From an uncultured Dehalococcoidia bacterium (GTDB lineage: Bacteria; Chloroflexota; Dehalococcoidia; SZUA-161), in the NCBI GenBank assembly GCA_964574685.1, contig CAZNOI010000005.1, positions 69,875 through 133,874 on the forward strand: a stretch of 64,000 nt of DNA, read 5' to 3'. Position numbers and translations under genes: made by a program. How positions within the stretch are numbered: the first letter of the stretch is position 1; each line of letters begins with the position of its first letter. The notes beneath the pieces were generated by a model. That model was not told where the DNA came from. It did no database searches and was given only the letters and a program-made list of their open reading frames with translations. Shown here one piece after another: positions 29,843 through 62,308 of the stretch.

Positions 29843-30067
29843 ATGTGTCTGGCAATACCCGCACTTGTGAAATCGATAGAAGGCATGGAGGCGGACGTTG
29901 AGATTGGAGGAGTGAGCCGCAGGGCCAGTGTCATGCTCACGCCGGAAGTGAAGGTCGGCGACTACGTCCTGCTACATACCGGGTATGCCATAAGCGTGAT
30001 AGACGAAGAAGAGGCCCGGGAAACCCTCGACCTGCTATCGGAGATGGTGGAGGCCGCGGAAGACTGA
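29843..30067 (+). CDS. hypC: hydrogenase assembly chaperone HypC/HupF
   Basis: 74 aa. N-terminal MCLAIP signature. Confidence 0.85.
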   Translation: MCLAIPALVKSIEGMEADVEIGGVSRRASVMLTPEVKVGDYVLLHTGYAISVIDEEEARETLDLLSEMVEAAED

Positions 30068-30100
30068 TACGGCGCTGGAAGCCGGGCCCTCTATGCATTC

Positions 30101-32189: not shown

Positions 32190-32217
32190 TACGCGGCCCT
32201 CTGCGTCTGAAGGTGTA

Positions 32218-32475: not shown

Positions 32476-32484
32476 TCGGCTGCC

Positions 32485-32829: not shown

Positions 32830-33287
32830 GAGTTCCTCCGTAGCCTTTCCATAATCATGTTCACGCAGATGGGTACAGCCTCCCGGACCTCGGGTGTGCA
32901 TTCTTCACCGAACGTGCCCGCATCCTCAATGGCGATACCGAAGATGACCATCTCGCGGGGGAGGTCCATCTCAAGCCTGCGGCCGAGGTCGAGCGCCGTT
33001 GCGAAGTTGACGTCGTGAACCGAAGATAGGTGCCTGGCCTCGTCGAAGGCCTCGGGTGAGAGTTGAAGCACCTCCCCCGGTCGGTAGCCTGCCATCTCTA
33101 CTGCGTCGACTATGAACGCTCTGTCATAGCCAGAGAGTATGTCCAGCAGCCTGAGACCAGCGAGACTGGTCTCTTCCACAGTGACGTCGCTGTTGTCGAT
33201 TCTGGACTTCAGTTCGGACGCCACCAGCAGTCCCACGCTGTCATCGCTTAGTATGGGATTACCCAGCCCCAGTATAAGTGTTCTCAA
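32811..33287 (-). CDS. hydrogenase maturation endopeptidase (HycI/HyaD/HoxM family)
   Basis: 158 aa. It starts MRTLILGLGNPILSDDSVG and has a conserved Asp/His metal site. It overlaps hypA. Confidence 0.8.
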   Translation of the reverse strand: MRTLILGLGNPILSDDSVGLLVASELKSRIDNSDVTVEETSLAGLRLLDILSGYDRAFIVDAVEMAGYRPGEVLQLSPEAFDEARHLSSVHDVNFATALDLGRRLEMDLPREMVIFGIAIEDAGTFGEECTPEVREAVPICVNMIMERLRRNSCTNST

Positions 33288-33398
33288 CAGACCACTCTCG
33301 CCGTCGATTATACCTGAGGGATACCCCCCGGAACAACGCGTTAATCCGATGCTGGTTTCGAGGCGTACCCCCCGACTGAGCCAGTTATGATTGCTGCG

Positions 33399-33427
33399 CT
33401 GGACATACCGTTATGGAAAACGTATAA
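33399..33427 (+). promoter_or_regulatory. sigma70-like promoter candidate (TGGACA-N17-TATAAT) for the hydrogenase operon
   Basis: TGGACA at 33399..33404, a 17-nt spacer, then TATAAT at 33422..33427. It sits in the 390-nt divergent intergenic region and implies a roughly 240-nt leader before 33678. Confidence 0.35.
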
Positions 33428-33677
33428 TCTCAGGAGGGAGCGGCAATTCCGCGCAAGGCGTGCTTCGCAATGCCACCGGGCGGCTCAACCACAGGAGTTC
33501 AATGGGGACGGGGACCCCTGGCAGACAGCAGGACAGGCGCTTCCGTTCAGGTCAGCCTCGACCGATATCCGTTCCTATCCCAATCCAGTTTCGCCCGGAA
33601 CCCGGTTGGGCGGGCTACCTGACAGTATCCCCATTCCGGGCTACCATCCGAAGTAACTAGCGACAGGAGGCCTCAGT

Positions 33678-35465
33678 ATGTGGAAGACAGACAGCACGGG
33701 AAAGGGGCGTGCGGAAGACGCGGTGATGCAGTTCCTTCCGCCATGCCAGATTCGATGTCCCATCAACGAGGATATCCAGCGTACCAACGTGCTCATATCT
33801 CTCCTGCCAGAAGACCCGAACCAGGCCAAAGAAGGTATCATCCAGATAGGTGACTACCTCTACGACAAGAACCCTTTCTTCACGGTCTGCGGCTACATCT
33901 GCGGCCTCTGTGAGAACGACTGCAACTACCGGACGAGGGGCGGCTCTATCAAGAGGCGCCTGCTCAAGCGCTTCCTCTCGGATACCTATACGCCGTATCT
34001 ATCTCAGAAGAAGCCGCTCGAAGTGAAGAAGGACAAGGACAAGGTGGCGGTCATCGGCGGCGGGCCCGGCGGCCTTATGTGCGCATATGAACTGAGCAAG
34101 AGGGGCTACAGGGTAACACTCTTTGACGACGCCGACAAGCTCGGGGGCGCCGTGAGGTACATTCCCGAGTACCGCCTTCCCGAAGAGGTTATGGACGCGG
34201 TAGTTGACAACCTGGTCCGGATAGCTGGCATAGAAGTCAAGCTGAAGACCAAGGTCGGCGAGGGCGGAGTCACGCTTCAGAAGCTGCGGGATGAAGGCTA
34301 CAAGGCGTTCTTCATTGCCACCGGAACTCCCTACCCTCGGCCACTGACCTTCGAAGGCGCCAAGGTCGAGGGCCAGGAGCAGGAGGGCGTCATGTACGGC
34401 CTCAAGCTCCTCTGGGATGCCAACAGGGGAGAAGTGCCGTCCGACCGCTTCAAGGGTAAGGATGTTATCGTAGTCGGTGGCGGCAACGTGGCCTTCGACG
34501 TCGCTCGGACCGCCAGGCGGCTTGGCGGCGACGTCACGCTGGTGGCTCTGGAGGTGCTGGACAAGGCATCGAAGGATGCGATCCCGGCGGATGTCGAGGA
34601 GATCGAAGGAGCGCGCGAAGAGGGAATACGAATCATCCCGTCGCGCGGAGTGCGAGGAATAGCGAAGTCGGACGGCAAGCTGAAGCTCGATTGCCCGCTC
34701 TGTGTCAGCGTGTTCGACGAGAAGGGATTCAATCCACAGTTCGAGTGTGCGGACTGCATTCCGCTGGAGGCCGACAACGTTCTGATTACCATTGGCCAGA
34801 TGGGGGACCGAGCGTTCCTTCAGAACGAGGGCCTCTTCAACGAAGCGGGCAGACTGCAGGTCGATCCGGTCGATCTGCGGGGGCGGGTTCCCGATGTGTT
34901 CATAGGCGGCGATGTGCGGCGAATCGGTTTCCTCGCTGACGCCATGCAGGAGGGCGTTGAGGCGGCTGAGTCCATCGATCGCTATCTGAGCGGGGTTGAC
35001 CTGAAACGGGACAGGGTACGCGAGTACAGCCCGTACGATGCGCCTTACCGCAGCAGGTATGAGGAAGAGCCGAAGCACAAGTGGATGCCCGCTGACAGCC
35101 GGATGAACTTCAATATGTTCGAGCAGGGATTCACCCTGCCGGAGGCGATCGAGGAGGCGAGGAGGTGCATTACCTGCGGGCCGTGCGTGTCCTGCAAAGC
35201 ATGCGTCTCAGTCGGCATCCAGGACGAGCTGACCCCGGCGCAGGTGGATGAGGACCTGTGTTGCGGCTGCAAGATGTGCTTTTATGCCTGCAACTACGAT
35301 GCCGCGGGACTCAAGGAGGTCGACGGCAGGCTCGTCTCCTACACGGACGAGCTGAAGTGCAAGTCGTGCGGCATGTGTGTGGCGGCCTGTCCGTCGGGTG
35401 CGAGGTCGCTCTCCGGTGACAGGACACCCGCCCGAATCCAGGAGGTCTACAGTGCTCTCCGGTAG
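33678..35465 (+). CDS. GltD/NfnB/SudA-like FAD- and NAD(P)H-binding oxidoreductase with a C-terminal 2x[4Fe-4S] ferredoxin domain (hydrogenase-associated)
   Basis: 595 aa. The N-terminal Cys cluster is CQIRCPINEDI...CGYICGLCENDCNY (the GltD-type helical ferredoxin). FAD motif VAVIGGGPGGLMCAYEL. NAD(P) motif VIVVGGGNVAFDVART. C-terminal cluster motifs are CITCGPCVSCKAC and CKSCGMCVAACP. Confidence 0.75.
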   Translation: MWKTDSTGKGRAEDAVMQFLPPCQIRCPINEDIQRTNVLISLLPEDPNQAKEGIIQIGDYLYDKNPFFTVCGYICGLCENDCNYRTRGGSIKRRLLKRFLSDTYTPYLSQKKPLEVKKDKDKVAVIGGGPGGLMCAYELSKRGYRVTLFDDADKLGGAVRYIPEYRLPEEVMDAVVDNLVRIAGIEVKLKTKVGEGGVTLQKLRDEGYKAFFIATGTPYPRPLTFEGAKVEGQEQEGVMYGLKLLWDANRGEVPSDRFKGKDVIVVGGGNVAFDVARTARRLGGDVTLVALEVLDKASKDAIPADVEEIEGAREEGIRIIPSRGVRGIAKSDGKLKLDCPLCVSVFDEKGFNPQFECADCIPLEADNVLITIGQMGDRAFLQNEGLFNEAGRLQVDPVDLRGRVPDVFIGGDVRRIGFLADAMQEGVEAAESIDRYLSGVDLKRDRVREYSPYDAPYRSRYEEEPKHKWMPADSRMNFNMFEQGFTLPEAIEEARRCITCGPCVSCKACVSVGIQDELTPAQVDEDLCCGCKMCFYACNYDAAGLKEVDGRLVSYTDELKCKSCGMCVAACPSGARSLSGDRTPARIQEVYSALR

Positions 35466-35499
35466 GCTGGGGAAGCTACTCTCTAGGAGGTCGACGAAA

Positions 35500-35916
35500 A
35501 TGTCCGATGGCGAACCGAAAGTCGTTTGTTTCTCCTGCAATTTCAGTTGGGGCTACCTGGCCGACAGAGATGCCCTTGCGTCGCAGGTCAAGAACTGGGT
35601 CCCGGTCGTGTGCACAGGCAAGATCGATATTACGCACATACTTGATGCCTTTCGGGCGGGCGCCGACGGGGTGCTGATCCTTGGGTGCCCCGAAGGTGAC
35701 TGCCACTTCCAGGACGGCAACATCGAGTGCAAGAAGAGGGTCTTCCTGCTAGGGAAGCTGCTGGAGGACTACGGGATCGAGAAGGACAGGCTTCGGATCG
35801 AGCTTGCAAGCGACCCCGATGGCAGCAAGCTCCCGCAGATGGTCAAGCAGATGAGCGAGAGCATTGCCCGGCTGGGCCCCGTCAAGAAAGTCGAGGCGCC
35901 AAGCAAGGTGGCATAG
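35500..35916 (+). CDS. mvhD: MvhD-like hydrogenase delta subunit ([2Fe-2S])
   Basis: Start at the internal ATG 35500, preceded by AGGAGG. Translation MSDGEPKVVCFSCNFSWGY...VVCTGKIDITHILDAFRAGADGVLILGCPEGDCHFQDG is the MvhD signature. Confidence 0.8.
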   Translation: MSDGEPKVVCFSCNFSWGYLADRDALASQVKNWVPVVCTGKIDITHILDAFRAGADGVLILGCPEGDCHFQDGNIECKKRVFLLGKLLEDYGIEKDRLRIELASDPDGSKLPQMVKQMSESIARLGPVKKVEAPSKVA

Positions 35917-35959
35917 ACGCCTGCAGGGAGAATCGACTGAATGGAGAGAGGAGTTCATT

Positions 35960-36925
35960 ATGGCTGACAAACCGAAGGTTGCGATTTGCTGGCTCGGGTC
36001 CTGCGGTGGCTGCGATGAAGCAGTGGTCGACATAAACGAAGCGGTCCTCACTGTGGCCGATGCCACGGATATCATTCTGTGGCCGGTGGCGCTGGACTAC
36101 AAGTACCACCACATAGAGGCCATGCAGGACGGTGAGATCACACTGAGTATCATCAATGGTCATATCAGGAACTCGGAGCAGGAAGAGGTGGCTAGGCTGC
36201 TCAGGAAGAAGTCCAAGCTCGTCCTGGCGTTCGGCGCATGTGCCTGCTTCGGAGGCACGCCGGGCATGGCCAACTTCAGAACCAAGGACGACATTTTCAA
36301 CTGGGTGTACCGGGATGCGCCCACGGTGGTCAACCCGAATGACAACAGGCCGCAGCCGAAGTCTACTGTCAACGGCAAGGAGCTAACCCTGCCTGAGTTC
36401 TACGAGCAGGTCTACGCTCTGAACCAGAGCATCGACGTGGACTACTATCTCCCCGGTTGTCCGCCTCCTCCGGACCTGATTGTAAACGCGGTGATGGCGG
36501 TGCTCGAGGGACGCCTCCCCGAAAAGGGCTCGACGCTGGCGCCGGCCCGGGCGCTTTGTGATACCTGCCCGCGCAACAAGACCAAGCCGGACAAGATATC
36601 GGTCAAGGAGTTCAAGCGGATACACGAGGTGGAGGCCGACCCCGATACATGCTTCCTGGCTCAGGGTATCGTGTGCCTGGGACCGGCTATTCGCTCCGGT
36701 TGCGGCGAGGCTTGCATGAATATCAACATCCCGTGCAGAGGCTGCTTCGGCCCTGTCGAGGGAGTGGGCGACGCTGGAGCCAGGCTGCTGTGCTCGCTGG
36801 CGTCGATTGTCGAGGCGGAGAGCGACAGTGAGCTGGAACAGGTGATGAGCACACTGGCCGATCCGGCCGGATACGCATACAGGTTCTCGGCGCCGATCTC
36901 GACACTGGTCAAGAAGCGGGTCTAG
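35960..36925 (+). CDS. mvhG: [NiFe]-hydrogenase small subunit (MvhG-like)
   Basis: Start at the internal ATG 35960. MADKPKVAICWLGSCGGCDEAVVD is the proximal-cluster motif. The C-terminus has additional Cys clusters. Confidence 0.85.
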   Translation: MADKPKVAICWLGSCGGCDEAVVDINEAVLTVADATDIILWPVALDYKYHHIEAMQDGEITLSIINGHIRNSEQEEVARLLRKKSKLVLAFGACACFGGTPGMANFRTKDDIFNWVYRDAPTVVNPNDNRPQPKSTVNGKELTLPEFYEQVYALNQSIDVDYYLPGCPPPPDLIVNAVMAVLEGRLPEKGSTLAPARALCDTCPRNKTKPDKISVKEFKRIHEVEADPDTCFLAQGIVCLGPAIRSGCGEACMNINIPCRGCFGPVEGVGDAGARLLCSLASIVEAESDSELEQVMSTLADPAGYAYRFSAPISTLVKKRV

Positions 36926-36945
36926 GAAGTCAAGGAGGAGCGACA

Positions 36946-38409
36946 ATGGGCAAGAGAATCACCATCAATCCGATAACGAGGCTCGAGGGCCACGGCAAGA
37001 TCGAGGTCTTTCTCGACGACACCGGCAACGTGGAGGATGCGTACTGGCAGGTCGTCGAGCTGAGGGGTTTTGAGAGGTTCTGCGTCGGCAGACCGGCGGA
37101 GGAAATGCCACGGATAACGCCGAACATATGCGGTGTCTGTCCGACGCCGCATAACATGGCGTCGACCAAGGCGCTTGATGACCTCTACAGCGTCGAGCCG
37201 ACACCCGCGGCGAAGCTGGTGCGCAAGCTCCACTACGATGCCTTCTACATCGAGGACCACTACATCCACTTCTTCTTCCTCTCGGCTCCTGACTTCGTTT
37301 TGGGCCCGGACGCCGACCCTGCCGAGCGAAACATCCTCGGCGTCATCGGAAAGGTAGGGCTGGATATCGGCAAGAAGGTAATCGATATCCGGAAGAGGAA
37401 CAGGGACGTCATCAAGCTGATCGGGAGCAAGCCCCCGCATCCCGAAGGTGGTCTTCCCGGCGGCGTCCCGAGGGGCGTCACCGAGGAAGAGCGGAAATGG
37501 ATCAAGCAACTGGCCGATGACAACGTCGAGTTCGCCCAGTTCGCCCTCAAGCTGTTCAAGGACACCGTCGTTGCGAACAAGCAGTACCTCGACCTCGTAC
37601 TCAGCGATGCCTACAACCTCAAGACCTACTACATGGGGCTGGTCGACGACAGCAAGAAGTGGGCGATCTACGAGGGCAAGATCAGGGTCATCGATCCCCA
37701 GGGCAAGGAGTATGCCCTCTTCGACCCGCGCGAATACACCGACTACATCGGCGAGTGGGTCGAGCCCTGGACCTACATCCGGCTGACCCATCTCAGGAAG
37801 CTTGGCTGGCAGGGGCTGGTCGAGGGCGACGGCACGTCGATATACCGCGTGGCGCCACTAGCCAGGCTGAACGTCTGTGAGTCAATGCCCACGCCGCTGG
37901 CCCAGAAGGCGCATGACGAGATGTACGAGGCGCTGGGCGGGAAGCCCGCGCACAATACCCTCGCCTTCCACTGGGCGAGGCTGATAGAGTGTCTGGCCTG
38001 CGCGGAGGAGATGCAGCAGATAGCGGCTGACCCCATGCTGACGAGCAAGGACATCCGCAACATGGATTTGAAGCTGAAGAACGTCGGCATCGGATGTGTG
38101 GAAGCGGCTAGGGGCACGCTGATACACCACTACGAGACCGATGACAGGGGCCTCATCACAAAGGCTAACCTGATCGTCGCCACCCAGCATAATGCGGCGC
38201 CCATCTGCATGTCGGTGAAGAAGGCTGCGATGGGGTTCGTCAAGGGCCCCGAGGTCAAGGAAGGCCTCCTCAACATGGTGGAGATGGCTTTCCGGGCCTA
38301 TGACCCGTGTCTCGCCTGCGCGACGCACTCCCTGCCCGGCAAGATGCCCCTTGAGATCAATATCAGGGACAAGAGCGGGCAGGTCATAACGAGCGTCGAG
38401 CGACACTAG
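36946..38409 (+). CDS. mvhA: [NiFe]-hydrogenase large subunit (MvhA-like, group 3)
   Basis: 487 aa. N-terminal RLEGHG...NICGVCPTPH. C-terminal DPCLACATH, followed by a cleavable extension. Confidence 0.9.
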   Translation: MGKRITINPITRLEGHGKIEVFLDDTGNVEDAYWQVVELRGFERFCVGRPAEEMPRITPNICGVCPTPHNMASTKALDDLYSVEPTPAAKLVRKLHYDAFYIEDHYIHFFFLSAPDFVLGPDADPAERNILGVIGKVGLDIGKKVIDIRKRNRDVIKLIGSKPPHPEGGLPGGVPRGVTEEERKWIKQLADDNVEFAQFALKLFKDTVVANKQYLDLVLSDAYNLKTYYMGLVDDSKKWAIYEGKIRVIDPQGKEYALFDPREYTDYIGEWVEPWTYIRLTHLRKLGWQGLVEGDGTSIYRVAPLARLNVCESMPTPLAQKAHDEMYEALGGKPAHNTLAFHWARLIECLACAEEMQQIAADPMLTSKDIRNMDLKLKNVGIGCVEAARGTLIHHYETDDRGLITKANLIVATQHNAAPICMSVKKAAMGFVKGPEVKEGLLNMVEMAFRAYDPCLACATHSLPGKMPLEINIRDKSGQVITSVERH

Positions 38410-51801: not shown

Positions 51802-52977
51802 CTAGTCTCGCGGAAGCCCGAGGCCTCTGGTGGCGATAATGGCCCTCTGGATCTCCGACGTACCTCCGGCGATCTTGTAATGCGGGGACTCCTGGTACAT
51901 GTGCGCGAACCAGCCGTGGACCTTGGCGTACTTCGAGTCGGACTCGAGCTCGCCGTAGGGTCCCAGAACCTGGATGCCTGTGTGGGCCAGGTCGTAGACT
52001 ACCTCGGTGCTGATCAGCTTGCCCATGGCGATCTCCTTGAGGGCGAACATCTTGAGCTCCTGCATCCAGGCAACCCGCCGCGACAGCACGCCCGTCACGG
52101 CGAACCTCATCTCGATCTCGGCCAGCTTTCGTCGCACGCCGGGGTCTTCGGAGAGGGGCTTCCCGCAAAGCTCCGTAGACTTGACGTACTCGATCAGTTC
52201 CTCCAGGGGGCGATGGAAACCGCTGATCGTGAAGGCTCTCTCGAACAGCAGCGCTGCTCCTATAATGTAGAAGCCCTGGTTCAGGTCGCCGACCAGGTTC
52301 TCCTTAGGGACTCTAACGTCGTCATAGAAGACCTCGTTCGAATGGTAGCCCGCCATGTCGCGTATGGGGCGTACGGTAATGCCGGGGGTATTCTTCAGGT
52401 CCACTATGAGCAGCGATATTCCCTTGTGTTTCTTAGGATTATCGGGATCTGTCCTTACCGCCAGCCATCCATAGTCCGCGAAATCGGCCTTGGTACTGAA
52501 CATCTTCTGTCCGTTGACGAGATAGTGGTCGCCCTTGTCCTCCGCCCGCAGGCTGATGGAAGCAAGGTCCGACCCGGCTCCAGGCTCCGTGTAGCCCATG
52601 GAGAACTCGACCTGGCCGCTCGATATCAGAGGCAGATACTTGCGCCTTTGCTCCTCGTTTCCATAAGCCAGTAGCGTGGGCCCGACTACCATGGCCCCGA
52701 TCACCGCGAAGGGGGCTGGTGCGAAGGCGTACGCGAGCTCCTCCTGGATAACGTAGTTGGTCAGGGCTGAGGCCTCCATGCCGCCCCACTCCTCGGGCCA
52801 GGTCGGGCACAGCCAACGCCGCTCGCCTAGCTTGCGCAACAGCCGCCACGTTGCGGCGCTGTACGGCTGGTCGAACATGAAGTCCGTGCGGCACTCTTCG
52901 TCGACTTCTTCACGCAGGAAAGCGCGAATCTCCTGCCGCAGCCGCTCCTGTTCGGGGGTGAAATGGAAATCCAACAT
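51802..52977 (-). CDS. acyl-CoA dehydrogenase (BbsG/CaiA-like position in the cluster)
   Basis: 391 aa. Four-domain ACAD with the C-terminal block IAGGTSEIQRAII. Confidence 0.85.
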   Translation of the reverse strand: MLDFHFTPEQERLRQEIRAFLREEVDEECRTDFMFDQPYSAATWRLLRKLGERRWLCPTWPEEWGGMEASALTNYVIQEELAYAFAPAPFAVIGAMVVGPTLLAYGNEEQRRKYLPLISSGQVEFSMGYTEPGAGSDLASISLRAEDKGDHYLVNGQKMFSTKADFADYGWLAVRTDPDNPKKHKGISLLIVDLKNTPGITVRPIRDMAGYHSNEVFYDDVRVPKENLVGDLNQGFYIIGAALLFERAFTISGFHRPLEELIEYVKSTELCGKPLSEDPGVRRKLAEIEMRFAVTGVLSRRVAWMQELKMFALKEIAMGKLISTEVVYDLAHTGIQVLGPYGELESDSKYAKVHGWFAHMYQESPHYKIAGGTSEIQRAIIATRGLGLPRD

Positions 52978-53029
52978 GCCTCCTTTGGCAGCAGTCTTGT
53001 CTGATTGGGTACGAACCGCGCCTGCCTGG

Positions 53030-54307
53030 CTAGGCCAGCACTCCCTCGCTCTTGAGGCTGTCTATCTGGTCTTGCGGCATGCCCAGCAGCTTGCCGTAGA
53101 CATAGTCGTTGTCCTGGCCGATCCTGGGCATGGGTTCGAAGCGACAGGGGGTCTCCGAGAAATGGATGGGCTCGGTGATACACATCACAGGCTTGCCCTC
53201 GGGCCACTCCGACCCGGACTTGCCGAACTCCGGCACGATGTACCGTGTCTCCTTGTAGTAGCCTCGGCGGTTCAGGTGCTCGCTCTGTGACAGGTCCTGC
53301 CCCTGCGCGACAATGCCGGCTGGTACCCCTACCGCCTGCATCATCTCCATGACTTCGACCGCATCCTGATCAGCAGTCCACTCGGTCACCAGCCGATCGA
53401 GTTCGACTACGTTGTCGAGCCTATCTGCGAGAGTAACGAACCGGGGCTCCGCTGTCCAGGCGGGATTGCCGATGACCTTGCGGAAGGACTGCCACTCCTC
53501 TTCCGTGAACACCGCGATAAGACACCATCTATCGTAGCCTCTGCAGGGGTACGCGCCATGAGGCGCGGCATAAGGGTCCCTGTTCTCCATTCGGGCGGGC
53601 AGGACGCCGTTGGCCTGGTAGTCAAGCAGTGCGGGGCCCGCTGTGACCACGCCGGTGTCGTTCAGTGAGCACTCGATGAGCGTGCCCTTGCCGGTTCTGC
53701 GGCGCCTGTCGAGGGCGGCAACGACGCTCAACGCGCTGAACATGGCCGCGTGGAGGTCGGAGTAGGGCGGATCGGTGGAAGCCGGCGCCTCCGTCGAACC
53801 CGTCATCAGCGAAACGCCGGAGCTGTACTGCGTGAGCATACCGTAGGCCTTGTATGAGCTGTACGGCCCGCTCGCCCCAAAAGCGTTCTGCCAGAGCATA
53901 ATGATGTTGTCTTTCACCTCACGAAGACGATCGTAGCCGAGGCCCCAGCGCTCAAGGGTCGGCATGGTGAAGTTGGTGGCGAAGATGTCGCTGATACCGA
54001 TCAACTCTCTCATGATCTCCTGAGCTTTGGGCTCGCGCACATTCAAACTCGCGCTCCGCTTGTTCACCAGGCGGTTGCGTATGATCAGGCCCGAGCCCCA
54101 CGGGGGAGGAAGCCAACCCTCGTCGATCGCGGTATCGCTCTGCACAGTGATGACTTCTGCGCCGAGCGAGGCAAGCACCCTGGTGGTGGTCGGGACGGCT
54201 GCATAGAAGGCGAGTTCGATGACCCGCAGCCCCTCGAATATGCTCCCTTTGCCTCCCGCCTGCGTAGTATCTCCAACGATACTCATGTGTCCCTCGCTAC
54301 ACAACAC
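53030..54307 (-). CDS. family III CoA-transferase (CaiB/BaiF/BbsE-F family), subunit 2
   Basis: 425 aa. N-terminus LRVIELAFYAAVPTTTRVLASLGAEVITVQ. Confidence 0.8.
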   Translation of the reverse strand: MLCSEGHMSIVGDTTQAGGKGSIFEGLRVIELAFYAAVPTTTRVLASLGAEVITVQSDTAIDEGWLPPPWGSGLIIRNRLVNKRSASLNVREPKAQEIMRELIGISDIFATNFTMPTLERWGLGYDRLREVKDNIIMLWQNAFGASGPYSSYKAYGMLTQYSSGVSLMTGSTEAPASTDPPYSDLHAAMFSALSVVAALDRRRRTGKGTLIECSLNDTGVVTAGPALLDYQANGVLPARMENRDPYAAPHGAYPCRGYDRWCLIAVFTEEEWQSFRKVIGNPAWTAEPRFVTLADRLDNVVELDRLVTEWTADQDAVEVMEMMQAVGVPAGIVAQGQDLSQSEHLNRRGYYKETRYIVPEFGKSGSEWPEGKPVMCITEPIHFSETPCRFEPMPRIGQDNDYVYGKLLGMPQDQIDSLKSEGVLA

Positions 54308-55532
54308 CAGCGGCTTTCAACGCTATCAGTTGGTTCGTGGCGTAGCCCAACTCGCCGCAGTATACCCGCTCATTGTCCTGGCCCAGGAGGGGTGCGGCCT
54401 TGCGCGGCGGTGGGATGTCGTCGCAGTAAACTCCGTCTCGCGGATACTTCATCGGACCCACCACCGGATGATCGAGCTCCACCCAGAAGCCACGGCTGGC
54501 CAGTTGCTTGTCGTCTATGAGGTCGGCTACGCTGTTCACCGGCAGCACGGGAATCCCGCGTCTCTGGCCCTCCAGGAAGATCTCCTGGGCAGTGAAGTTG
54601 CCGGTGAAGTCCAGAAACCTCGCCTCCAGCTCGTCCATGTAGTCGTAACGCGCCAGAACGCCTCCCTTGTACTTGTCATCGAGGATCTCCTCGTCTCCTG
54701 TCACCTCATACATCCATTGGGCCAGCGCATCCCATTCCTTGGCTCGTACGACGTACATGCCGATCCAGCCGTCCTTGCATGAGTAGAGACCGCCTGGGAA
54801 GTTATACCTGCTCGTCGGCCCCTGCCTGATGATGTTCTCGCCGATCATGGCCCAGCCGGCCTCCTGCGTCGCCTCAGAGCAGTAGACGTTGAGGGTCTCC
54901 TGCATGGACACATCGATGTACTGGCCGCGTCCGGTCACAGCGTCGCGATAATACAGTGCCGCCACGGTCGCCACCGCTGCGTACTGTGATGGGGCGAAGT
55001 GCGACTGCTCGTCCCCAAACCGCAAGGGCAGGCCGTAGGGATCTCCCGTCACCTGCATGAAACCGCTCATCCCCATGACTATGAGGTCGGAGGACTTGTA
55101 GTCTCTTAGAGGGCCCGTCTGCCCGAACGGCGTGATGGAGGTCATTACGAGCTTGGGGTTAAGTTCTCTCAGCGCGGGGTAGTCAAGCCCGATGGCGGAG
55201 AGATGACGGACCGGGAAGGTCTCGATCACTGCGTCGGCTGTAGACGCCAGTCTCTTGAAGATGGCCCGGCCGTCGGGGTGTTCCAGGTCGAGCGTAACGG
55301 AGCCCTTGCTCGTGTTGTAGTAGAGGAAGTACAGGCTCTTCTCGGGGTGGGCGTCGTTCTGGAAGAACGGTGGACGAGACCTCGACTTGTCTCCACCAGG
55401 GGGTTCGACCTTGAGGACGTCCGCGCCGAGGTCGGCGAGCAGCTTGCCGCAGTAGACGCCCTTCTCGTCGGCCAGGTCCAGAACCCTGTAAGGTGGCAGG
55501 AACCCAGCCTCGCCATGTGGTGCCTTCGGCAT
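54297..55532 (-). CDS. family III CoA-transferase, subunit 1
   Basis: 411 aa. YRVLDLADEKGVYCGKLLADLGADVLKVEPPGG. It overlaps the next transferase by 11 nt. Confidence 0.85.
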   Translation of the reverse strand: MPKAPHGEAGFLPPYRVLDLADEKGVYCGKLLADLGADVLKVEPPGGDKSRSRPPFFQNDAHPEKSLYFLYYNTSKGSVTLDLEHPDGRAIFKRLASTADAVIETFPVRHLSAIGLDYPALRELNPKLVMTSITPFGQTGPLRDYKSSDLIVMGMSGFMQVTGDPYGLPLRFGDEQSHFAPSQYAAVATVAALYYRDAVTGRGQYIDVSMQETLNVYCSEATQEAGWAMIGENIIRQGPTSRYNFPGGLYSCKDGWIGMYVVRAKEWDALAQWMYEVTGDEEILDDKYKGGVLARYDYMDELEARFLDFTGNFTAQEIFLEGQRRGIPVLPVNSVADLIDDKQLASRGFWVELDHPVVGPMKYPRDGVYCDDIPPPRKAAPLLGQDNERVYCGELGYATNQLIALKAAGVV

Positions 55533-55562
55533 CCTGTGTGTACCTGTATCCCGACCCCTGGG

Positions 55563-58019
55563 CTATCGCTTCGAGAGCTTGTGTCTTGTCCTGGATATGA
55601 TCTGGTTCTGGACTTCCTCGTGCATATCGACGAAATAGGCGCTGAAGCCTGCAACTCTCACTATCAGGTCCTGATGATGAGCCGGGCGCTTCTGCGCGTC
55701 CCTCAGAACCTCATTGTCTATCACGTTGAACTGGATGTGGTGTATGCCAAGATCGACGAACGTCCTGAGATAGGCAACGAAGCGTGACCGGTTGTCTCCC
55801 TCCAGGAACTCAGGTGCAATCCTCTGATTGAACAGGTGGTTGAATGTGAGCATGGGGTCTATCTTGGCCACGGACCTCAGGACTGCGGTCGGCCCGTTCT
55901 TGTCGGTGCCGATCTCCGGCGATACGGTGCCGTCGTTGAACGTCTCGCGGTCCTTCCTGCCGTCAGGTGTGGCCCCTGTGAGGCCGGCGAAGTGGAAGTA
56001 GCTGGCCGATCCGCTGCCATCGCAGGTGACGTTATGGCCGTATATGGTCTTGAAATCCTGCATTGTCTGAGCGGTCCTGATGTGGACATCACGTGCGAAC
56101 AGATCAACGTCGTCATCGTCATTGCCGAACCTTGGTGCATCGAGGAACATCTGACGTAGCTGCTCGTGACCCTCCCAGTTGTCCTTCAGGGCCCGGAGGA
56201 GCTCGTCCATGGTCACGGTCTTTTCGTCGAATATGAGCTTCTTCATCGCAAAGAGGGCGTTGACCACCGTCGTGTGACCGACGGGCTGGATGTTGGTCTT
56301 GTGCCAGTAGTGGAGGTCTCTGACGTCGGCCGCGTGCTCGATGCACCCGTCGAGGAGGGCGGAGTTGAATGGTTGGGGCAACCACTGCTCCTCAATAGCA
56401 TCCGTCAGGTTCGCAAAGATGACAATCTTCTCAGTGAAGAACCTGAGTTGCTCCAGGTATGCCTGGATAACATCCTCAATCGATGTGAACGCAAGCGGGT
56501 CCGGGGTCCTGACGCCGGTCTGTTTGCCACTGAAGAACTTGTCATCAACTCCCCGGGTAAGCGCCAGCTCCAGGCATTTCAGCACCACAAACCCTATTCC
56601 GGCGATGGCACGGTGTCCCATAGGTTTGCCCACCACCGTATGCCTCATGCAGTCCTCGACGGCCCAATTCCTCGCGTCCTCAACCGAGAAACCCTTGCTC
56701 ATGAGGTACGGGACCATGAACTCGTCGTTGAAGATGCCGTAGTGCCCTGCGTCCTCCCTCAGGATGTCCGTAAGGCGATAGAGAAACTCGTCCGGGGTGT
56801 TGCGATGCAGTCTGACCACCATCATGGGCTCAACCAGCTTGAGCGACTTGACGCTCTCCATGATGATGGAAGACAATTCGTTGCTCGCGTCCCGCCCCAG
56901 GCTGTCCTGGCCTCCGATCGTCACGTAGCGCGGTGTGGTGTGGCCGCCGCTCGCCATGATGGGGGCGTTGAAGTCAGTAAGCTCGGTGATCTTGAGCCAG
57001 ATGTGCTCGATCAGGTCCTGCGCTTCCTCAGGTGTGATCCGACCCTCTTCCTTGTCCTTCCTGTAGGCGGGGTACCAGATGTAGTCGACCCTGTCGCCGA
57101 TGCCAACGGTTTGTATGTCAATGACCCGCACCAGGAGCATCACGAGGAACCAGGCCTGCAGCGTTTCGCGGAATGTCCGAGGCGGATTCGCTGGCGCCCA
57201 GTCGCAGGCTTGGGCAATCTCCTCCAGGTCGGCTCGTCTCTTGGGGTCACTCTCGTCGGCAGCCATGGCCCTGGCCAGTGCGGCGTACCTTCTCGCCCAC
57301 CTGATGACCGCTTCTACACTGATGATAGCGGCCTCCAGGAATGCCTTCTTCTTCAAGAACTCGGTCGGGTTGTCGCGGATGTATTCCCTGTCGGAAGTGA
57401 TCTCGCGCAGCTTCGCGCGAGTCTCATCAAGTATGCCGTTCAACCCCACCTTGAACATCTTCTCGTAGTTCGGCATCTGCCCGGAGTGGGCCCCGTGTAC
57501 CCATACGAAGACCCCGTGATTCATGAAGGACCAGTACGGTTTGTCCTCCTCGGCGAGGTGGAAACGCTCTGCGCCGTGTATGGACTTGTTCATCCAGTAC
57601 CGGTTGATCTCGTGCATCTCCTCCCGCTCTTCGTCGCTCAGCATATTCTTGTACCCCGCCTCGATGGCCTTGTCCACCCAGCGGCAGTAGAGCTCGGGGT
57701 AGCTGATCGTGTGATCGGGAGTCCTTGCCGTGTTGCCCACAAATCGGTCGTGCTCGGTGATGTAGATCGTCATGTTGTCTAGGTAGTTGGCCATAGCCCT
57801 GGCCCTCTTGATAACCATCGGCTCGCCGTCGTTCTCTATGTAGGCCTGGGTCACGTAGCGGGCTCGCTCGATGTCCAGCTTCAACGTATGTCGAATATGG
57901 CTCTTCTTGCCGAGCTTCTCCTCTTCGTCAACCCGGTAGTCACGCTGGCCCATCATCGTCCTGTATCGGAACTCGTCCGCCAGCATCTGTGTTCTCGTCT
58001 TCCTCGCTTCGACTACCAT
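55563..58019 (-). CDS. glycyl radical enzyme (PFL2/glycerol-dehydratase-like class) with a non-canonical Cys loop
   Basis: 818 aa. Gly-radical motif RVAGFSAYFVDMHEEVQNQIISRT (Gly at about 788). GRE N-terminal helices. The central Cys is at about 457 in NWAVEDCMRH. There is no Glu at C+2 and no CC. Confidence 0.9.
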   Translation of the reverse strand: MVVEARKTRTQMLADEFRYRTMMGQRDYRVDEEEKLGKKSHIRHTLKLDIERARYVTQAYIENDGEPMVIKRARAMANYLDNMTIYITEHDRFVGNTARTPDHTISYPELYCRWVDKAIEAGYKNMLSDEEREEMHEINRYWMNKSIHGAERFHLAEEDKPYWSFMNHGVFVWVHGAHSGQMPNYEKMFKVGLNGILDETRAKLREITSDREYIRDNPTEFLKKKAFLEAAIISVEAVIRWARRYAALARAMAADESDPKRRADLEEIAQACDWAPANPPRTFRETLQAWFLVMLLVRVIDIQTVGIGDRVDYIWYPAYRKDKEEGRITPEEAQDLIEHIWLKITELTDFNAPIMASGGHTTPRYVTIGGQDSLGRDASNELSSIIMESVKSLKLVEPMMVVRLHRNTPDEFLYRLTDILREDAGHYGIFNDEFMVPYLMSKGFSVEDARNWAVEDCMRHTVVGKPMGHRAIAGIGFVVLKCLELALTRGVDDKFFSGKQTGVRTPDPLAFTSIEDVIQAYLEQLRFFTEKIVIFANLTDAIEEQWLPQPFNSALLDGCIEHAADVRDLHYWHKTNIQPVGHTTVVNALFAMKKLIFDEKTVTMDELLRALKDNWEGHEQLRQMFLDAPRFGNDDDDVDLFARDVHIRTAQTMQDFKTIYGHNVTCDGSGSASYFHFAGLTGATPDGRKDRETFNDGTVSPEIGTDKNGPTAVLRSVAKIDPMLTFNHLFNQRIAPEFLEGDNRSRFVAYLRTFVDLGIHHIQFNVIDNEVLRDAQKRPAHHQDLIVRVAGFSAYFVDMHEEVQNQIISRTRHKLSKR

Positions 58020-58345
58020 CTTTCTACCTCCCGCGATGCCTGGAAAACATCAAGCCTTCGATTCTTCGCTTGCTTTCTCTTCTCCAGGATGAGACGAGGC
58101 ATTCGCTCATACCCAAGGCCACCAACTGACACCATTCTAGTGTTCAATTCCGCATGGGGCAAATGTCTGCGGCAATGCCTGATTGGGAGTGGAAACAAGC
58201 TGCGACCTGGGTGTGTACTCACATTTGGCCATGATTCCAAAGTCGCCAGAACCCTACGCGTTCCTGTGGCCGGTCTACTTGGCCAGGCCCCGGGTGGACG
58301 CGGCACGGGCCGGTCAATATGGTAGTCGCTCACCGGTAGTTGGAA

Positions 58346-58990
58346 CTAGACTGGTGCAACGGGCTCCGGGGGCTGGATGGCCTCAGGAGTGCTCGTATTC
58401 TCCCGGTGATGATCATAGCTCGGAACAGACAGGGAAGTGTCGTGCGCCGGGATTGGAAGCAGCCTCCGAAGCAGTCGGCCGACCCTCCGGAAAGCCGAGC
58501 GCAGGGCGCTGCGGGGACTCCAACTGCCGTCCACCCAGCCTCTCTTCAGCGTGTTGGACGCAGCCATAGCGGCGAAGTTGATGGCCTTCTGAGGCCCGAA
58601 CCAGCTCGCCAGGTTGATGGCCAGTAGAGGCTCCATTCCCGCCGGGCCGATGAGGGCACCCTGGGTCAGTGCGAGCGCTGCAACCGTACCGACGTTTGGA
58701 AGCTGCTCGACCAGTTGCAGTCTCATCACGTCCAGGGACATGTGGCGGCCCGACCTCCGATAGTCTTTCCTGAAGACAAACCAGTAGCCGGCCACCCACA
58801 GCGAGACATAGCCGACGAAGCTCCCTGCCATGCTCGCGGGGACGATAACGGTAGCTCCCATGTCATCGGTTGCGTAGGCTATTAGAGACCGACCCGCGAA
58901 CGCGCCGAATCCGGCGACGATCTGGACAATTGCCAGCCTGCCGCTGAAGTACTGTCTGACCCTGGCCTTCAACCGCGATATTACCTTCAT
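58346..58990 (-). CDS. hypothetical membrane protein
   Basis: 214 aa with several hydrophobic helices. It lies between the Cys-motif paralogs and the GRE on the same strand. Confidence 0.4.
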   Translation of the reverse strand: MKVISRLKARVRQYFSGRLAIVQIVAGFGAFAGRSLIAYATDDMGATVIVPASMAGSFVGYVSLWVAGYWFVFRKDYRRSGRHMSLDVMRLQLVEQLPNVGTVAALALTQGALIGPAGMEPLLAINLASWFGPQKAINFAAMAASNTLKRGWVDGSWSPRSALRSAFRRVGRLLRRLLPIPAHDTSLSVPSYDHHRENTSTPEAIQPPEPVAPV

Positions 58991-59096: not shown

Positions 59097-59597
59097 TCAG
59101 GTTGTTATGGCGGGGGGCCTGAGGTGGACCAGCCTGCGACAGGTCTTCGAGCCGGTCGTCAGGGGGCTGTCAAGCAGCTCTATCTGGACCGGGTGCTTGA
59201 CCACTGCCTCGAACATCACCTTGTTGAAGTAGTTGCCGCAGATGCACCAGTCCGGGTTCGGCTCGAGGTGGTTGAGGGCAATCATTGGACACATGCACTC
59301 GCCCTCCACTTCTGGGAAGAAGTCGTAGTGAATGACGTCGCCCTTGCGCTCCAGCTTCCTGGCGCCGGGAAAGGCGTTCATGAGGTCTGTCATGAAGGTG
59401 TCCAGGTCCACGTCGGTGTTCAGGTTCCCGTAGGGCAGGAACAGCGAGTTGCACATCCTGCCTGTGCACTCGACGCACAGCTCCCTCATCGCAGGGTCGA
59501 AGTCCTCCTGGAATACCCGTTTGAGCACCTCGCTCTTCAGCAACCCGACGAAGAACTCCCGCTGCGCGATTTCCTCCTCGGTCAGCTCTTGCGGCAT
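59097..59597 (-). CDS. Cys-motif protein, paralog 1 (uncharacterised family)
   Basis: 166 aa. Motifs shared with the next two genes are GD.(I/V)H, C.CP.I, C.C..N and (C)CR..VHL. Confidence 0.55.
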   Translation of the reverse strand: MPQELTEEEIAQREFFVGLLKSEVLKRVFQEDFDPAMRELCVECTGRMCNSLFLPYGNLNTDVDLDTFMTDLMNAFPGARKLERKGDVIHYDFFPEVEGECMCPMIALNHLEPNPDWCICGNYFNKVMFEAVVKHPVQIELLDSPLTTGSKTCRRLVHLRPPAITT

Positions 59598-59679
59598 TGT
59601 GACCTCCCGTTGCGACCGCAGGCGCTTCTCGTCACCCGCGGTCTTGTCAGGACCTGCCTATTCCTCAGATGGCTGGTCC

Positions 59680-60210
59680 TTACTTCTTGTCCTGCGGCGT
59701 GATGAACTCCGCGTCCTTGAGGTACATGACGTAGCGGCAACAGGGAGCACCCGTTGTCAGCGCGCTGTCTGTGAGCTCGGTCTTGGCAACCGGCATGCCA
59801 ATCGTCTCCAGGTACTGCGCGGCCATGTTCGCTCCGCAGGAGCACAGCTCGGGAAAGGGTTCCATTATGCCCATCTTGATGACTGGGCACTCGCATATGG
59901 GATTACCCTCCTCGTCTGTACTGCAGTGGTACCAGCTGTGCACGACGTCGCCCACCCTCTGTATGGTCCTGGGCCCCAGCGGGGGTTCGAGTTCACTAAG
60001 GTGCTTCACCAGCTCGTCGTACGTCATCTCGGGCCGTATCCCGAGCGCCCATACTGCAAGCGGTGCGCAGGCCTTGGCCATACGCATCATGACGAAGTCC
60101 CTGTGCTCGGGTGGCAGCTCTCTGGCGGCTTGAAGAACGGCGGCCAGCATGCGGGGTACCCAGGTAGTGTAAATCAGTCCCTTGATCTCCTCCGACCACT
60201 CGTGTGGCAT
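59680..60210 (-). CDS. Cys-motif protein, paralog 2
   Basis: 176 aa. PICECPVIKMG...CSCGANMAAQYLE...CCRYVMYLK. Confidence 0.55.
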   Translation of the reverse strand: MPHEWSEEIKGLIYTTWVPRMLAAVLQAARELPPEHRDFVMMRMAKACAPLAVWALGIRPEMTYDELVKHLSELEPPLGPRTIQRVGDVVHSWYHCSTDEEGNPICECPVIKMGIMEPFPELCSCGANMAAQYLETIGMPVAKTELTDSALTTGAPCCRYVMYLKDAEFITPQDKK

Positions 60211-60240
60211 GGCTTGTCCCTCCTTAGTCGGGCTGCTGTC

Positions 60241-60816
60241 CTATCTCTCGTGCTTGACAGAGGTGAACGGGGACGGCTTGAGGTGCACCAGGAACCGGCA
60301 TTTCTCCTCGCCGTTCACCATGGGGCTGCCCAGCGTCTCGACGGTCTCCACTTCCCTGCCCGTGTATTCCTCGATGTAGCTGGCCACGCTGTTGGCCGAA
60401 CAGGCGCAGACCTCGCCTCTGGGCTCAATCCACCCGAACATGATGAGCGGGCACTGGCATATGGGCCGGCCCTTCTCGTCCTTCGGGGGAACGTATGTCC
60501 AGTGAACGATGTCGCCTATCTGGGTAACCTCCCTGGGCCCGAACGGAGGCGCCAGCTCCGCCATATGCTTCTTGTAGGCCTCCCACTCCATGCCCGGCTC
60601 ACAGCCCAGCACGAGCTTGGCCTGGTCACTGCAGGCCTTCGACATCATCATCAGGATGCGGTCCCGGTGCTGGGGCGGCAGTTCGCTTATCCCCTGGTAG
60701 GCTGCATCCATGATCTTGTAGAGCCAGCCATGGAGCAGGTCCTTGATATCGGGGCTATGCTCAAGGTATGCGGTGTCGATAGAGTCCTTCACTTCCGCTG
60801 GTAGTTCGTCCGGCAT
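60241..60816 (-). CDS. Cys-motif protein, paralog 3
   Basis: 191 aa. PICQCPLIMFG...CACSANSVASYIE...CRFLVHLK. Confidence 0.55.
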   Translation of the reverse strand: MPDELPAEVKDSIDTAYLEHSPDIKDLLHGWLYKIMDAAYQGISELPPQHRDRILMMMSKACSDQAKLVLGCEPGMEWEAYKKHMAELAPPFGPREVTQIGDIVHWTYVPPKDEKGRPICQCPLIMFGWIEPRGEVCACSANSVASYIEEYTGREVETVETLGSPMVNGEEKCRFLVHLKPSPFTSVKHER

Positions 60817-60858: not shown

Positions 60859-61602
60859 CTATTCCTTGCCCCACTCCACTTCGGGCATGGCCACGGTCCT
60901 GACCTCCTCGGTCTTCGACTCCTCCAGGAACAGGGTCCGGAGCGGAGAGTAGGGGACCAGCCCGTAGAGGAACCTGTAGATGACCTTTGGACGCCACTTC
61001 GCTGCCTCGATCTCCCAGCTCTTGTAGTCGGGGTCTTTCAGCGCGTTCTCGCGTATGGTCACCCAGTCACTGTGGATGTTGCCCGCTGTCCAGATGTTTA
61101 TCACTTCGCCACTGCCTGCGAGGCCGGCCACGGACTTGTAGCAGCCCACGAGCTTCATTCCCCAGTTCCCGGCCATCGGCGCCAGCTTGCTGCCCACGGC
61201 GTGTATGTACTCGTCCTCCTTGCCGGGGGGCGTCTTCGCCAGGGTGTGCAGGTAGATGGTGGCCCTGTATGAGCTGTCGCTCTTGATGTCCGCCAGAGCG
61301 GGCGAGAAGGGGGCCGGCTCCAGCACCTTGCCCGTCCAGTCGCTCACGTAGTCCGGAGCCTCGCGCGACCACACTCTGGCAAGATGGTGGTTGTCCCAGT
61401 AGTCCTGGACCCGGTCGAATGTAGACCAGTCGTCGGTCTCCCACAGGGCCAGGTTCTCGTTGTAGTGTATGCCCACCATGAACATGCCGGTGAGCCTCAG
61501 GCTGTGCTCCTCAGCCTCGGGCAGGTAGTCGGTCTGGAGCACCTTCCAGTATTCCTCCTGGAAACGGGAGACTATCGTTATGCTCTCGTACAGATACAGC
61601 AT
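60859..61602 (-). CDS. NIPSNAP-family protein (two dimeric alpha/beta-barrel halves), paralog 1
   Basis: Start at the internal Met (MLYLYESITIVSRFQEEY). The second half carries KLVGCYKSVAGLAGSGEVINIW. Confidence 0.6.
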   Translation of the reverse strand: MLYLYESITIVSRFQEEYWKVLQTDYLPEAEEHSLRLTGMFMVGIHYNENLALWETDDWSTFDRVQDYWDNHHLARVWSREAPDYVSDWTGKVLEPAPFSPALADIKSDSSYRATIYLHTLAKTPPGKEDEYIHAVGSKLAPMAGNWGMKLVGCYKSVAGLAGSGEVINIWTAGNIHSDWVTIRENALKDPDYKSWEIEAAKWRPKVIYRFLYGLVPYSPLRTLFLEESKTEEVRTVAMPEVEWGKE

Positions 61603-61633
61603 TCTGCTTCCTCCATTCGGCGCCGGTGAACGG

Positions 61634-62308
61634 CTAGTGGAGTACCGAGTAGGGGGCCGGCAGCAGGAACTTGTAGTTCCACTCGCTGCACAGGCCGGCA
61701 AGTCCCTGAACGGTTGATCTCAGCTTCGAGTCCTTCTTCTGCTCCTCCCGGACCCGGCCGAAGTGCGTCCAGTCCTTCAGCGACCAGATGCTGATGATCT
61801 CGCCAGACTCACCGCACGCGCCGAACCAGCGGTAGCAGCCCGCCAGCTTTGAGCCCGTCTGGTCCATGGCAGGCATGAGGCCGTTCTCCATGAGGGCCAG
61901 GAACTCGTCCGTCTTGCCGGGATGGACGCTGAAGGCCCAGCGGCAGTAAAGGCTGTTGCCGGTGAAGTCGCCCTTGTCCTTGCGGGCCTTTATGTCGGCG
62001 GCGGTCGGCGCGAACGGCAGCCCTTCGATCAGGCTGTCGAACCACTCGTCACGGTACCGGAATGCGACGCGGTGCCAGGACAGTCCGTCGCGCTCGTGGA
62101 TGACGTAGTTGGAGAGGCCTTCGAGCGAAGCGACACCTTCCGGCAACTCGGAAAGGAAGAAGGTCTCTCGGTGCCTGAAGGCGACCCGGAAGACGCCGAG
62201 GACGGTCATGTGCCTGTTCAATCCGGGGATAAGGTCGGTCTCCATAACCCTGACGTATTCGTCAATCACGCCGGTGAAGGGATAGGTTGTCTCGTGCAGG
62301 TAGAGCAT
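61634..62308 (-). CDS. NIPSNAP-family protein, paralog 2
   Basis: 224 aa. MLYLHETTYPFTGVIDEY...KLAGCYRWFGACGESGEIISIW. Confidence 0.6.
   Translation of the reverse strand: MLYLHETTYPFTGVIDEYVRVMETDLIPGLNRHMTVLGVFRVAFRHRETFFLSELPEGVASLEGLSNYVIHERDGLSWHRVAFRYRDEWFDSLIEGLPFAPTAADIKARKDKGDFTGNSLYCRWAFSVHPGKTDEFLALMENGLMPAMDQTGSKLAGCYRWFGACGESGEIISIWSLKDWTHFGRVREEQKKDSKLRSTVQGLAGLCSEWNYKFLLPAPYSVLH

Follow-up and report, generated by a model that had tools for sequence, protein, structure and literature searches.

A 64-kb stretch of contig CAZNOI010000005.1 from an uncultured Dehalococcoidia bacterium, here called the window and amounting to less than half of its 134.8-kb source contig, carries on the minus strand a gene for a glycyl radical enzyme (GRE), two genes for family-III coenzyme A (CoA) transferases (CoATs) and a gene for an acyl-CoA dehydrogenase (ACAD). 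The four open reading frames (ORFs) were confirmed at the coordinates proposed in a preliminary description of this DNA, and their co-directional, tight arrangement is borne out by the ORFs themselves, by their Pfam domains and by the intergenic spacing, which is 30 nt between the GRE and the first CoAT gene and 52 nt between the second CoAT gene and the ACAD gene (Table 1).

Table 1. Positions of the GRE gene group and associated features in the window
Feature	Position	Strand	Basis
Glycyl radical enzyme (GRE), 818 aa, gene 1 of the putative operon	55563..58019	-	516 bits for PFL-like and 91 for Gly_radical (Pfam)
Family-III CoA-transferase, A-type (catalytic) subunit, 411 aa, Asp149 kept	54297..55532	-	CoA_transf_3 283 bits
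Family-III CoA-transferase, B-type subunit, 418 aa, Gly at the catalytic-Asp position	53030..54286	-	CoA_transf_3 275 bits (longest ORF)
Acyl-CoA dehydrogenase (ACAD), 391 aa, final gene of the putative operon	51802..52977	-	Pfam N, M and C domains
Cys loop E455-D-C457-M-R459-H460, thiyl-radical cysteine	56640..56657	-	Alignment to solved GREs
Arg470 (Cys+13), candidate carboxylate-binding residue	56610..56612	-	Near-invariance in GRE family
Glycyl radical motif R-V-A-G791-F-S, residues 788-793	55641..55658	-	Motif location
Promoter-like site TTGCCC-17-TAGAAT in the 326-nt gap 5' of the GRE gene	58134..58162	-	Consensus match only
Two NIPSNAP-domain genes, 60859-61701 and 61634-62308	60859..62308	-	Pfam; similar pair beside GRE locus L004/5

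The two CoAT genes had been described as overlapping by 11 nt, an artefact of choosing the longest ORF for the B-type subunit (53030-54307, starting at GTG 54307, 425 aa). The gene more probably starts at ATG 54286, with 10 nt between it and the A-type gene; we prefer this start because GAGGGA precedes it, because homologues are 412 aa long with 12-18-nt gaps to the preceding gene, and because a 425-aa product is unrecorded, with no entry in the protein collection that we searched. No strong terminator separates the four genes: our terminator scan found no convincing terminator-like site between them, and its sole match (54325-54308) is a weak 5-bp stem at the junction of the two CoAT genes. 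Neither promoter nor terminator counts in the scan exceeded the level of shuffled sequence, so that both carry little weight. A convergent P-type ATPase gene, ending at 51242, closes the putative operon, and an Rfam scan of 51-63 kb found no RNA element.

The first gene encodes an intact, full-length GRE, as its PFL-like and Gly_radical domains, its motifs and the quality of its structural model attest. An AlphaFold2 model built from a 64-sequence alignment reached a pLDDT of 90.9 and a pTM of 0.92, and it superposes on solved PFL2-class GREs with TM-scores of 0.85-0.89 at 28-31% identity. In a HMMER alignment, Cys457 falls on the cysteine of the G-C-(V/I/T)-E loop of five solved GREs (HplG, glycerol dehydratase, HypD, IseG and a propanediol dehydratase); it follows from this alignment that Asp456 stands in place of Gly and Arg459 in place of Glu. 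The loop, E-D-C-M-R-H, thus has a single Cys and neither a CC nor a CXE motif, as the preliminary description had read it. All eliminases and isomerases keep the CXE motif, and two Cys are found only in PFL and TdcE (June 2026 review, PMC13450708). The Phe of RVAGFS, which had been singled out as unusual, proved to be common: Phe, Tyr and Leu all occur at this position in the GRE family, and genuine X-succinate synthases (XSS) also read RV(A/S)GFS.

Relatives of the glycyl radical enzyme

The enzyme scored below the cut-off of every curated NCBIfam model: HpsG (525 against a cut-off of 1000), the PFL2 subfamily TIGR01774 (522 against 678), HypD (480 against 1100), CutC (426 against 1050), HpfG (426 against 1000), the PflD-type model (382 against 1109), IAD (367 against 1100), the HPAD large subunit (305 against 1150) and PFL itself (TIGR01255, 88 bits against 994). 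Together with the low identity to solved GREs, this places it outside the characterised subfamilies, as had been suspected. Against solved structures it scored about equally with glycerol dehydratase (442 bits), TutD (376) and MasD (353), and the arylacetate decarboxylase (AAD) 7e7l matched no better than other GREs (368 bits).

A search of 5.8 billion proteins retrieved more than 100 homologue clusters, down to 44% identity and almost all metagenomic; the few named members come from Dehalococcoidia, other Chloroflexota and Deltaproteobacteria. Most homologues have the loop E-G-C-M-R-W, the closest relatives (at least 79% identity) have E-D-C-M-R-H, and one nested sub-clade has E-A-C-(A/T)-(S/V/I)-(Y/H). 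An Arg occupies the position of the CXE Glu throughout the core family, and Arg470 is nearly invariant across the GRE family. By these shared loop features, the enzyme is a member of an uncharacterised C-M-R-(W/H) lineage, of which our literature searches found no description. Whole GRE clades remain without an assigned function (2026 review, PMC13450708).

Some homologues depart from this pattern. In three family members at 59-61% identity (P0046, P0047 and P0049), the thiyl Cys is replaced by Ser (E-D-S-L-R-x) and the radical motif reads R-(I/T)-A-G-S-S; these proteins may be inactive or may work differently. Two distant homologues, one from a Bathyarchaeia metagenome-assembled genome (MAG; L038 4969-7305) and one from a Desulfobacteraceae MAG (L049 116-2512), have Thr at the radical-glycine position (R-V-A-T-Y-(T/S)) and are similar to the aminoacyl radical enzymes to which the 2026 review refers. 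Tandem GRE paralogues, two to four in a row, are frequent in the family and its sister clade (L004/L005 7509-12457, L088 7534-17445 and L012 1560-12346); because they carry differing Cys loops (e.g. EDCMRH beside EDCLRH), they suggest substrate diversification.

We placed the family in neighbour-joining trees of 34 family proteins, 14 XSS and 82 GREs from species-representative genomes, the last with loops like those of glycerol/propanediol dehydratase, HypD, IslA and PflD/YbiW, plus some of no known type. XSS formed a clade with 100% bootstrap support, and the enzyme under study fell outside it. The C-M-R-(W/H) core (32 sequences) was recovered at 93-97%; a wider clade of 51 sequences, which takes in enzymes with the loops G-C-V-Y-(L/I)-(D/E) and N-N-C-M-V-P, including some Asgard archaeal ones, at 99%; and the same wider clade plus XSS likewise at 99%. 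With full-length alignments, the family and XSS stood on one side of a split supported at 96-99%. This split also held when trimming was made stricter, when either of two other distance measures was used and when residues 420-500 were left out, and it was present in each half of the protein (80% and 99%). In this sampling, the trees make the C-M-R-(W/H) family the nearest relative of XSS.

The enzyme shares with XSS the GRE fold, a single Cys followed by Met and the lack of Glu at Cys+2; each also has an Arg 13-15 residues past the Cys, although the correspondence of the two is ambiguous (see below). The XSS loop, which we took from the supplement of the limonene paper (PMC12583861) and from a clean XSS gene in locus L073, differs from it: V-L-C-M-S-P-G with an Arg at Cys+15, so that only C-M is common to both. 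The XSS Arg, which is Arg508 in the numbering of benzylsuccinate synthase (BSS), and fumarate have been described as parts of one polar network in the binding site (PMC12583861). When the short Cys loop was used as a query against the PDB, BSS was not among the matches. As the preliminary description had stated for this DNA, no BssB/BssC-like small Cys-rich ORF lies beside the GRE gene in the window, nor in the related loci L005 or L008; beta and gamma subunits are needed for solubility and turnover in BSS and MASS (2026 review, PMC13450708). Judged by its place outside the XSS clade, its lost pocket residues (see below) and the lack of small subunits, the enzyme itself is not an XSS. With the PFL2-class eliminases and isomerases (glycerol/propanediol dehydratases, HypD, CutC, IseG/IslA, HpsG, HplG and YbiW/PflD), it has in common fold, length, TM-scores of 0.85-0.88 and its top raw scores; it differs from them in lacking the CXE Glu and the Gly before the Cys, in lying on the opposite side of the 96-99% split and in its gene context.

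Single-Cys GREs of uncultured lineages (Asgard archaea, Chloroflexi and Atribacteria) have, in passages of two earlier papers, been proposed from sequence to add substrates to fumarate (PMC8163825, PMC6258724). Three Asgard sequences (L015, L017 and L032) fall in the sister clade of the family studied here. The Ass/Bss-like or PflD-like metagenomic candidates of those passages were compared with A. fulgidus PflD, which is itself no closer to our enzyme than other GREs are (337 bits). A term search in parts of PMC8163825 and PMC6258724 turned up no account of the C-M-R-(W/H) family and none of its linkage to CoA-transferases.

The CoA-transferases, the acyl-CoA dehydrogenase and their linkage to the enzyme

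Among solved structures, each CoAT subunit best matched its own chain of benzylsuccinate CoA-transferase (BbsEF, 9fn0). The A-type subunit scored 199 bits against 9fn0_A (36% identity), as compared to 154 for the next match and 120 for chain B; the B-type subunit scored 193 bits against 9fn0_B (34% identity), as compared to 122 for the next match, and chain A was unlisted (E > 1e-10). The catalytic Asp (Asp149) is present in both the A-type subunit and 9fn0_A, and is Gly in both the B-type subunit and 9fn0_B, a split kept in every GRE-linked CoAT pair that we recovered and in the genuine XSS locus L073. Because the best matches are subunit-specific and the Asp/Gly split is shared, the architecture of the pair, as far as sequence comparison goes, is of the BbsEF type proposed earlier, with two paralogous subunits in the order A then B and the catalytic Asp only in the A-type. 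The CoATs of L073 are 62% and 69% identical to 9fn0; because those of the window reach only 34-36%, they belong to a distant sub-family that presumably takes another acid. The top NCBIfam matches of the A-type subunit were succinate-glutarate (192 bits) and then succinyl-CoA:mesaconate CoA-transferase, and those of the B-type subunit were formyl-CoA transferase (156 bits) and then succinate-glutarate CoA-transferase.

For the ACAD, the nearest matches were the PimC large subunit and ChsE4-type enzymes, all below cut-off; among NCBIfam models it lies nearest to pimeloyl- and glutaryl-CoA dehydrogenases. The window repeats the sequence of A/B-type CoAT (with the Asp/Gly split) and then ACAD known from XSS systems (BssA/TutD, NmsA, HbsA, IbsA, LssA and MasD/AssA with BbsEF/BbsG). 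The suggested likeness to the BssA, BbsEF and BbsG series thus stands in that an ACAD follows the CoAT pair, but fails for the ACAD itself, which is not BbsG-like.

The preliminary description had called the GRE hard-wired to its CoAT and ACAD partners. This wording fits the sub-clade with the EDCMRH loop, in which five independent loci have the GRE followed by the A-type CoAT, the B-type CoAT and usually the ACAD: the window, L008 (GRE identity 81%, from a Dehalococcoidia MAG), L004/5 (in which two tandem GREs come first and a major facilitator superfamily (MFS) transporter after), L171/172 and L173. The expected conservation in other genomes was thereby observed. A further locus, L007 (GRE identity 83%), is rearranged to B-type CoAT, amidohydrolase, orthologous ACAD, GRE, activase and second ACAD. 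ACAD orthologues at 77-78% identity occupy the same position in L004/5, L007 and L008.

Acyl-CoA genes recur beside more distant GREs of the family and of its sister clade. An A- and B-type CoAT pair follows the GRE in L011 (GRE identity 50%) and in L090 (49%), the latter with an ACAD and an MFS transporter nearby. Other loci have ACAD pairs (L010 and L021, at 49% and 41%), an enoyl-CoA hydratase and an activase (L003, 51%), or a longer set of amidohydrolase, methylmalonyl-CoA-mutase-type, OYE-type, SDR, acyl-CoA ligase, enoyl-CoA hydratase and ACAD genes (L089, 51%). Conversely, no CoA-related or activase neighbours were found in L001 (72%) or L092-L095 (52-69%), and L088 (55%) has four tandem GREs and no CoA genes. 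A metagenome scan found few close family loci, the majority of them without CoA-transferases. In the loci compared, the acyl-CoA linkage is therefore recurrent in the family and fixed in the EDCMRH sub-clade, but not family-wide; to that extent, "hard-wired" overstated it.

Possible chemistry and alternatives

In the scheme that we propose, a radical-SAM (S-adenosylmethionine) activase encoded elsewhere would activate the GRE, Gly791 would store the radical and Cys457 would abstract a hydrogen atom. An anionic and probably dicarboxylic ligand would be bound by two arginines on either side of the thiyl site, Arg459 at the position of the eliminase Glu and Arg470 at about that of the fumarate-binding Arg of BSS. 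In BSS, Arg508 binds fumarate directly. Arg470 aligns with His446 of glycerol dehydratase, next to Asp447, and corresponds by spacing to Thr502 of CutC, a position mutated in solved structures; it would line the active-site pocket. A small or polar C-H substrate would add to fumarate or a similar unsaturated dicarboxylate, forming a C-C bond and yielding a substituted succinate. A heteromer of the A-type (Asp149) and B-type (Gly) CoAT subunits would then move CoA from succinyl-CoA to this product, the ACAD would introduce an alpha,beta double bond, and beta-oxidation-type steps encoded elsewhere would follow.

Several properties of the reactants can be predicted from these genes. The substrate of the GRE, or one of two substrates, would be anionic and probably a dicarboxylate, and its product would be a carboxylic acid, charged with CoA at the expense of succinyl-CoA and dehydrogenated thereafter; the CoAT linkage predicts more narrowly that this product is a dicarboxylic acid. 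The NCBIfam matches of the CoATs and the ACAD to enzymes of dicarboxylate metabolism speak for this reading. The MFS transporter near the syntenic loci L005 and L090 suggests a soluble substrate, and points to an acid rather than to the hydrocarbons of XSS.

That the minus-strand genes between 58019 and 51802 make up a single operon, devoted to breaking down an acidic compound without oxygen, has in our estimate a probability of about one half. The general logic, by which the GRE product becomes a CoA ester, would have a chance of roughly one in two or better. The preliminary description had envisaged an undescribed GRE-initiated pathway of this kind, and the novelty of the family, the CoAT pair and the conserved linkage support it. 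Addition to fumarate would be the most likely chemistry of the GRE, at about one chance in three, and is favoured by where the enzyme branches in the tree, by the features in common with the XSS loop (C-M and the Arg) and by the BbsEF-type enzymes that follow. More tentatively, the C-M-R-(W/H) enzymes at large may be a new GRE class, single-subunit hydroalkylases in which two active-site arginines hold fumarate or a different unsaturated dicarboxylate for the attachment of a polar C-H substrate that is soluble in water.

A number of observations weigh against these proposals. No radical-SAM activase was found in the window by a CxxxCxxC scan and by Pfam on the called genes; we regard this as a gap and not a contradiction, because the window covers less than half of the contig and because relatives carry an activase beside the GRE (L007 and L003). 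That the GRE acts before the CoAT is an assumed order. The fold search does not discriminate, since all PFL2-class GREs lie at TM 0.85-0.89, and the trees are neighbour-joining only and leave out Ass/Mas-type XSS and the named decarboxylases. Identity of the enzyme to XSS is 33%, no higher than to eliminases, whereas the sampled XSS are 54-90% identical to one another. The match of Arg470 to the XSS Arg at Cys+15 is ambiguous, the two being aligned in tblastn and two residues off in MAFFT. The XSS pocket residues N389, D390, L391, W613, N615 and Q707 are T, T, P, N, Q and S in our enzyme; with these smaller, polar residues, its predicted pocket is much more polar than that of XSS. The CoATs stand at the distance from BbsEF noted above, the ACAD is only 22% identical to that of the genuine XSS locus, and many C-M-R-W members lack nearby CoA genes.

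The alternative that survives best keeps the same operon logic but gives the GRE other radical chemistry on a di- or tricarboxylic acid, namely decarboxylation, carbon-skeleton rearrangement or C-C cleavage; we consider it possible, if doubtful. The absent XSS pocket residues and the polar pocket fit this chemistry, and the two active-site arginines would suit any carboxylate ligand (PFL, too, binds pyruvate through an Arg soon after its Cys loop). The arylacetate decarboxylase 7e7l is the top match for the loop segment and is likewise without the Glu (G-C-V-L-H), and Amidohydrolase_2, methylmalonyl-CoA-mutase-type and PrpD-type genes adjoin some family members. Yet the decarboxylase models (IAD with 367 bits, HPAD with 305) give the family lower scores than the eliminase models do, and the tree puts it with XSS. 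Moreover, the GRE decarboxylases known to us release end products that are not CoA-activated, and BbsEF-type transferases are, to our knowledge, so far typical of substituted succinates and similar bulky dicarboxylates.

It is less probable by far that the order is reversed, with the CoAT and ACAD acting first to make or recycle an unsaturated acid for the GRE. Gene order is uninformative on reaction order, and the bbs pathway of toluene catabolism recycles succinate and fumarate around the same set of enzymes; but we know of no GRE pathway that runs this way, an extra thioesterase or transferase step would be required to free the acid, and the CoA ligase that takes the place of the transferase in L089 fits activation of a free-acid product better. 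Less credible again is a 1,2-eliminase or isomerase with an odd loop and functionally unrelated neighbours. Although the top raw scores are to glycerol dehydratase, IseG and HpsG models, every score is far below its cut-off, Arg replaces the CXE Glu family-wide, the synteny with CoA genes is kept down to about 50% GRE identity, and no aldehyde dehydrogenase or microcompartment genes occur among the annotated neighbours. The quaternary-amine pathway (carnitine or gamma-butyrobetaine, of the CaiB/CaiA type) that had been suggested in connection with MttB methyltransferases is the least plausible, for although family-III CoATs and ACADs also serve the cai/bbu pathways and MttB genes do lie in the window (22779-25677), the CoATs score 73 and 99 bits against a CaiB cut-off of 413 and the ACAD 82 against a CaiA cut-off of 540, far weaker than the BbsEF-type and dicarboxylate-type matches, the MttB genes form a cluster of their own about 26 kb from the GRE genes behind unrelated genes and absent from the syntenic loci, and CutC, the only characterised C-N-cleaving GRE eliminase, keeps the CXE motif that is missing here.

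GREs perform some of the hardest anaerobic reactions, and identification of the substrate would add a reaction or a substrate class to anaerobic carbon cycling. The clade has many members and is spread widely among uncultured Dehalococcoidia, other Chloroflexota and Desulfobacterota. If its members are single-subunit hydroalkylases, sediments rich in Dehalococcoidia would have a previously unrecognised anaerobic route for abundant organic matter other than hydrocarbons, and biocatalysis would gain a fumarate-adding enzyme that works without iron-sulfur small subunits. Difficulties with subunits and with activation at present hamper work on XSS (2026 review, PMC13450708), and the enzyme described here could yield a more easily handled hydroalkylase for C-C bond-forming biocatalysis.

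Other genes in the window

Upstream of the GRE gene, the nearest gene encodes a 214-aa hydrophobic, membrane-like protein with no Pfam match (58346-58990, minus strand). Three tandem Cys-rich paralogues follow, 1-3 kb upstream of the GRE (59097-60816, minus strand; 166, 176 and 191 aa, 26-40% identical), with the motif C-x-C-P ... C-x-C ... C-R and one weak, sub-threshold match to DUF6144. We considered the trio and the membrane protein as accessory subunits and rejected both, since they are absent from all other fetched loci. The two NIPSNAP proteins encoded beyond them are 29% identical to each other and 41-44% identical to a pair beside the GRE locus L004/5/6 (GCA_021787935.1); because of this second occurrence beside a related GRE, the pair may be associated with the GRE operon.

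The MttB genes belong to a complete-looking corrinoid methyltransferase cluster (20196-27211, minus strand) that encodes two MttB-family proteins, a B12-binding protein, a pterin-binding methyltransferase, a RACo-type reductive activator and a DUF1638 protein. It is unrelated to the GRE operon, from which hydrogenase, chaperone and signalling genes separate it. The hydrogenase genes (27489-38409) constitute a NiFe-hydrogenase set with HypF, HypD, HypE-like and HycI-type protease genes, small and large subunits and an NAD(P)-linked FeS flavoprotein.

At the start of the window (3-5471, minus strand) lie an ACAD gene cut by the window edge and genes for a thiolase, a fusion of HMG-CoA-synthase-like, DUF35 zinc-ribbon and OB parts, and an acyl-CoA ligase. 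The thiolase and DUF35 genes (1095-3761) were considered for the BbsAB step and rejected, their match to the archaeal thiolase/HMG-CoA-synthase/DUF35 complex 6esq (206 bits) exceeding that to benzoylsuccinyl-CoA thiolase (155). On the plus strand, 8318-13474 encodes a 1718-aa protein that consists of little else than TPR repeats; near the GRE in L090, too, there is a large gene of TPR repeats (782 aa, truncated at the end of the locus).

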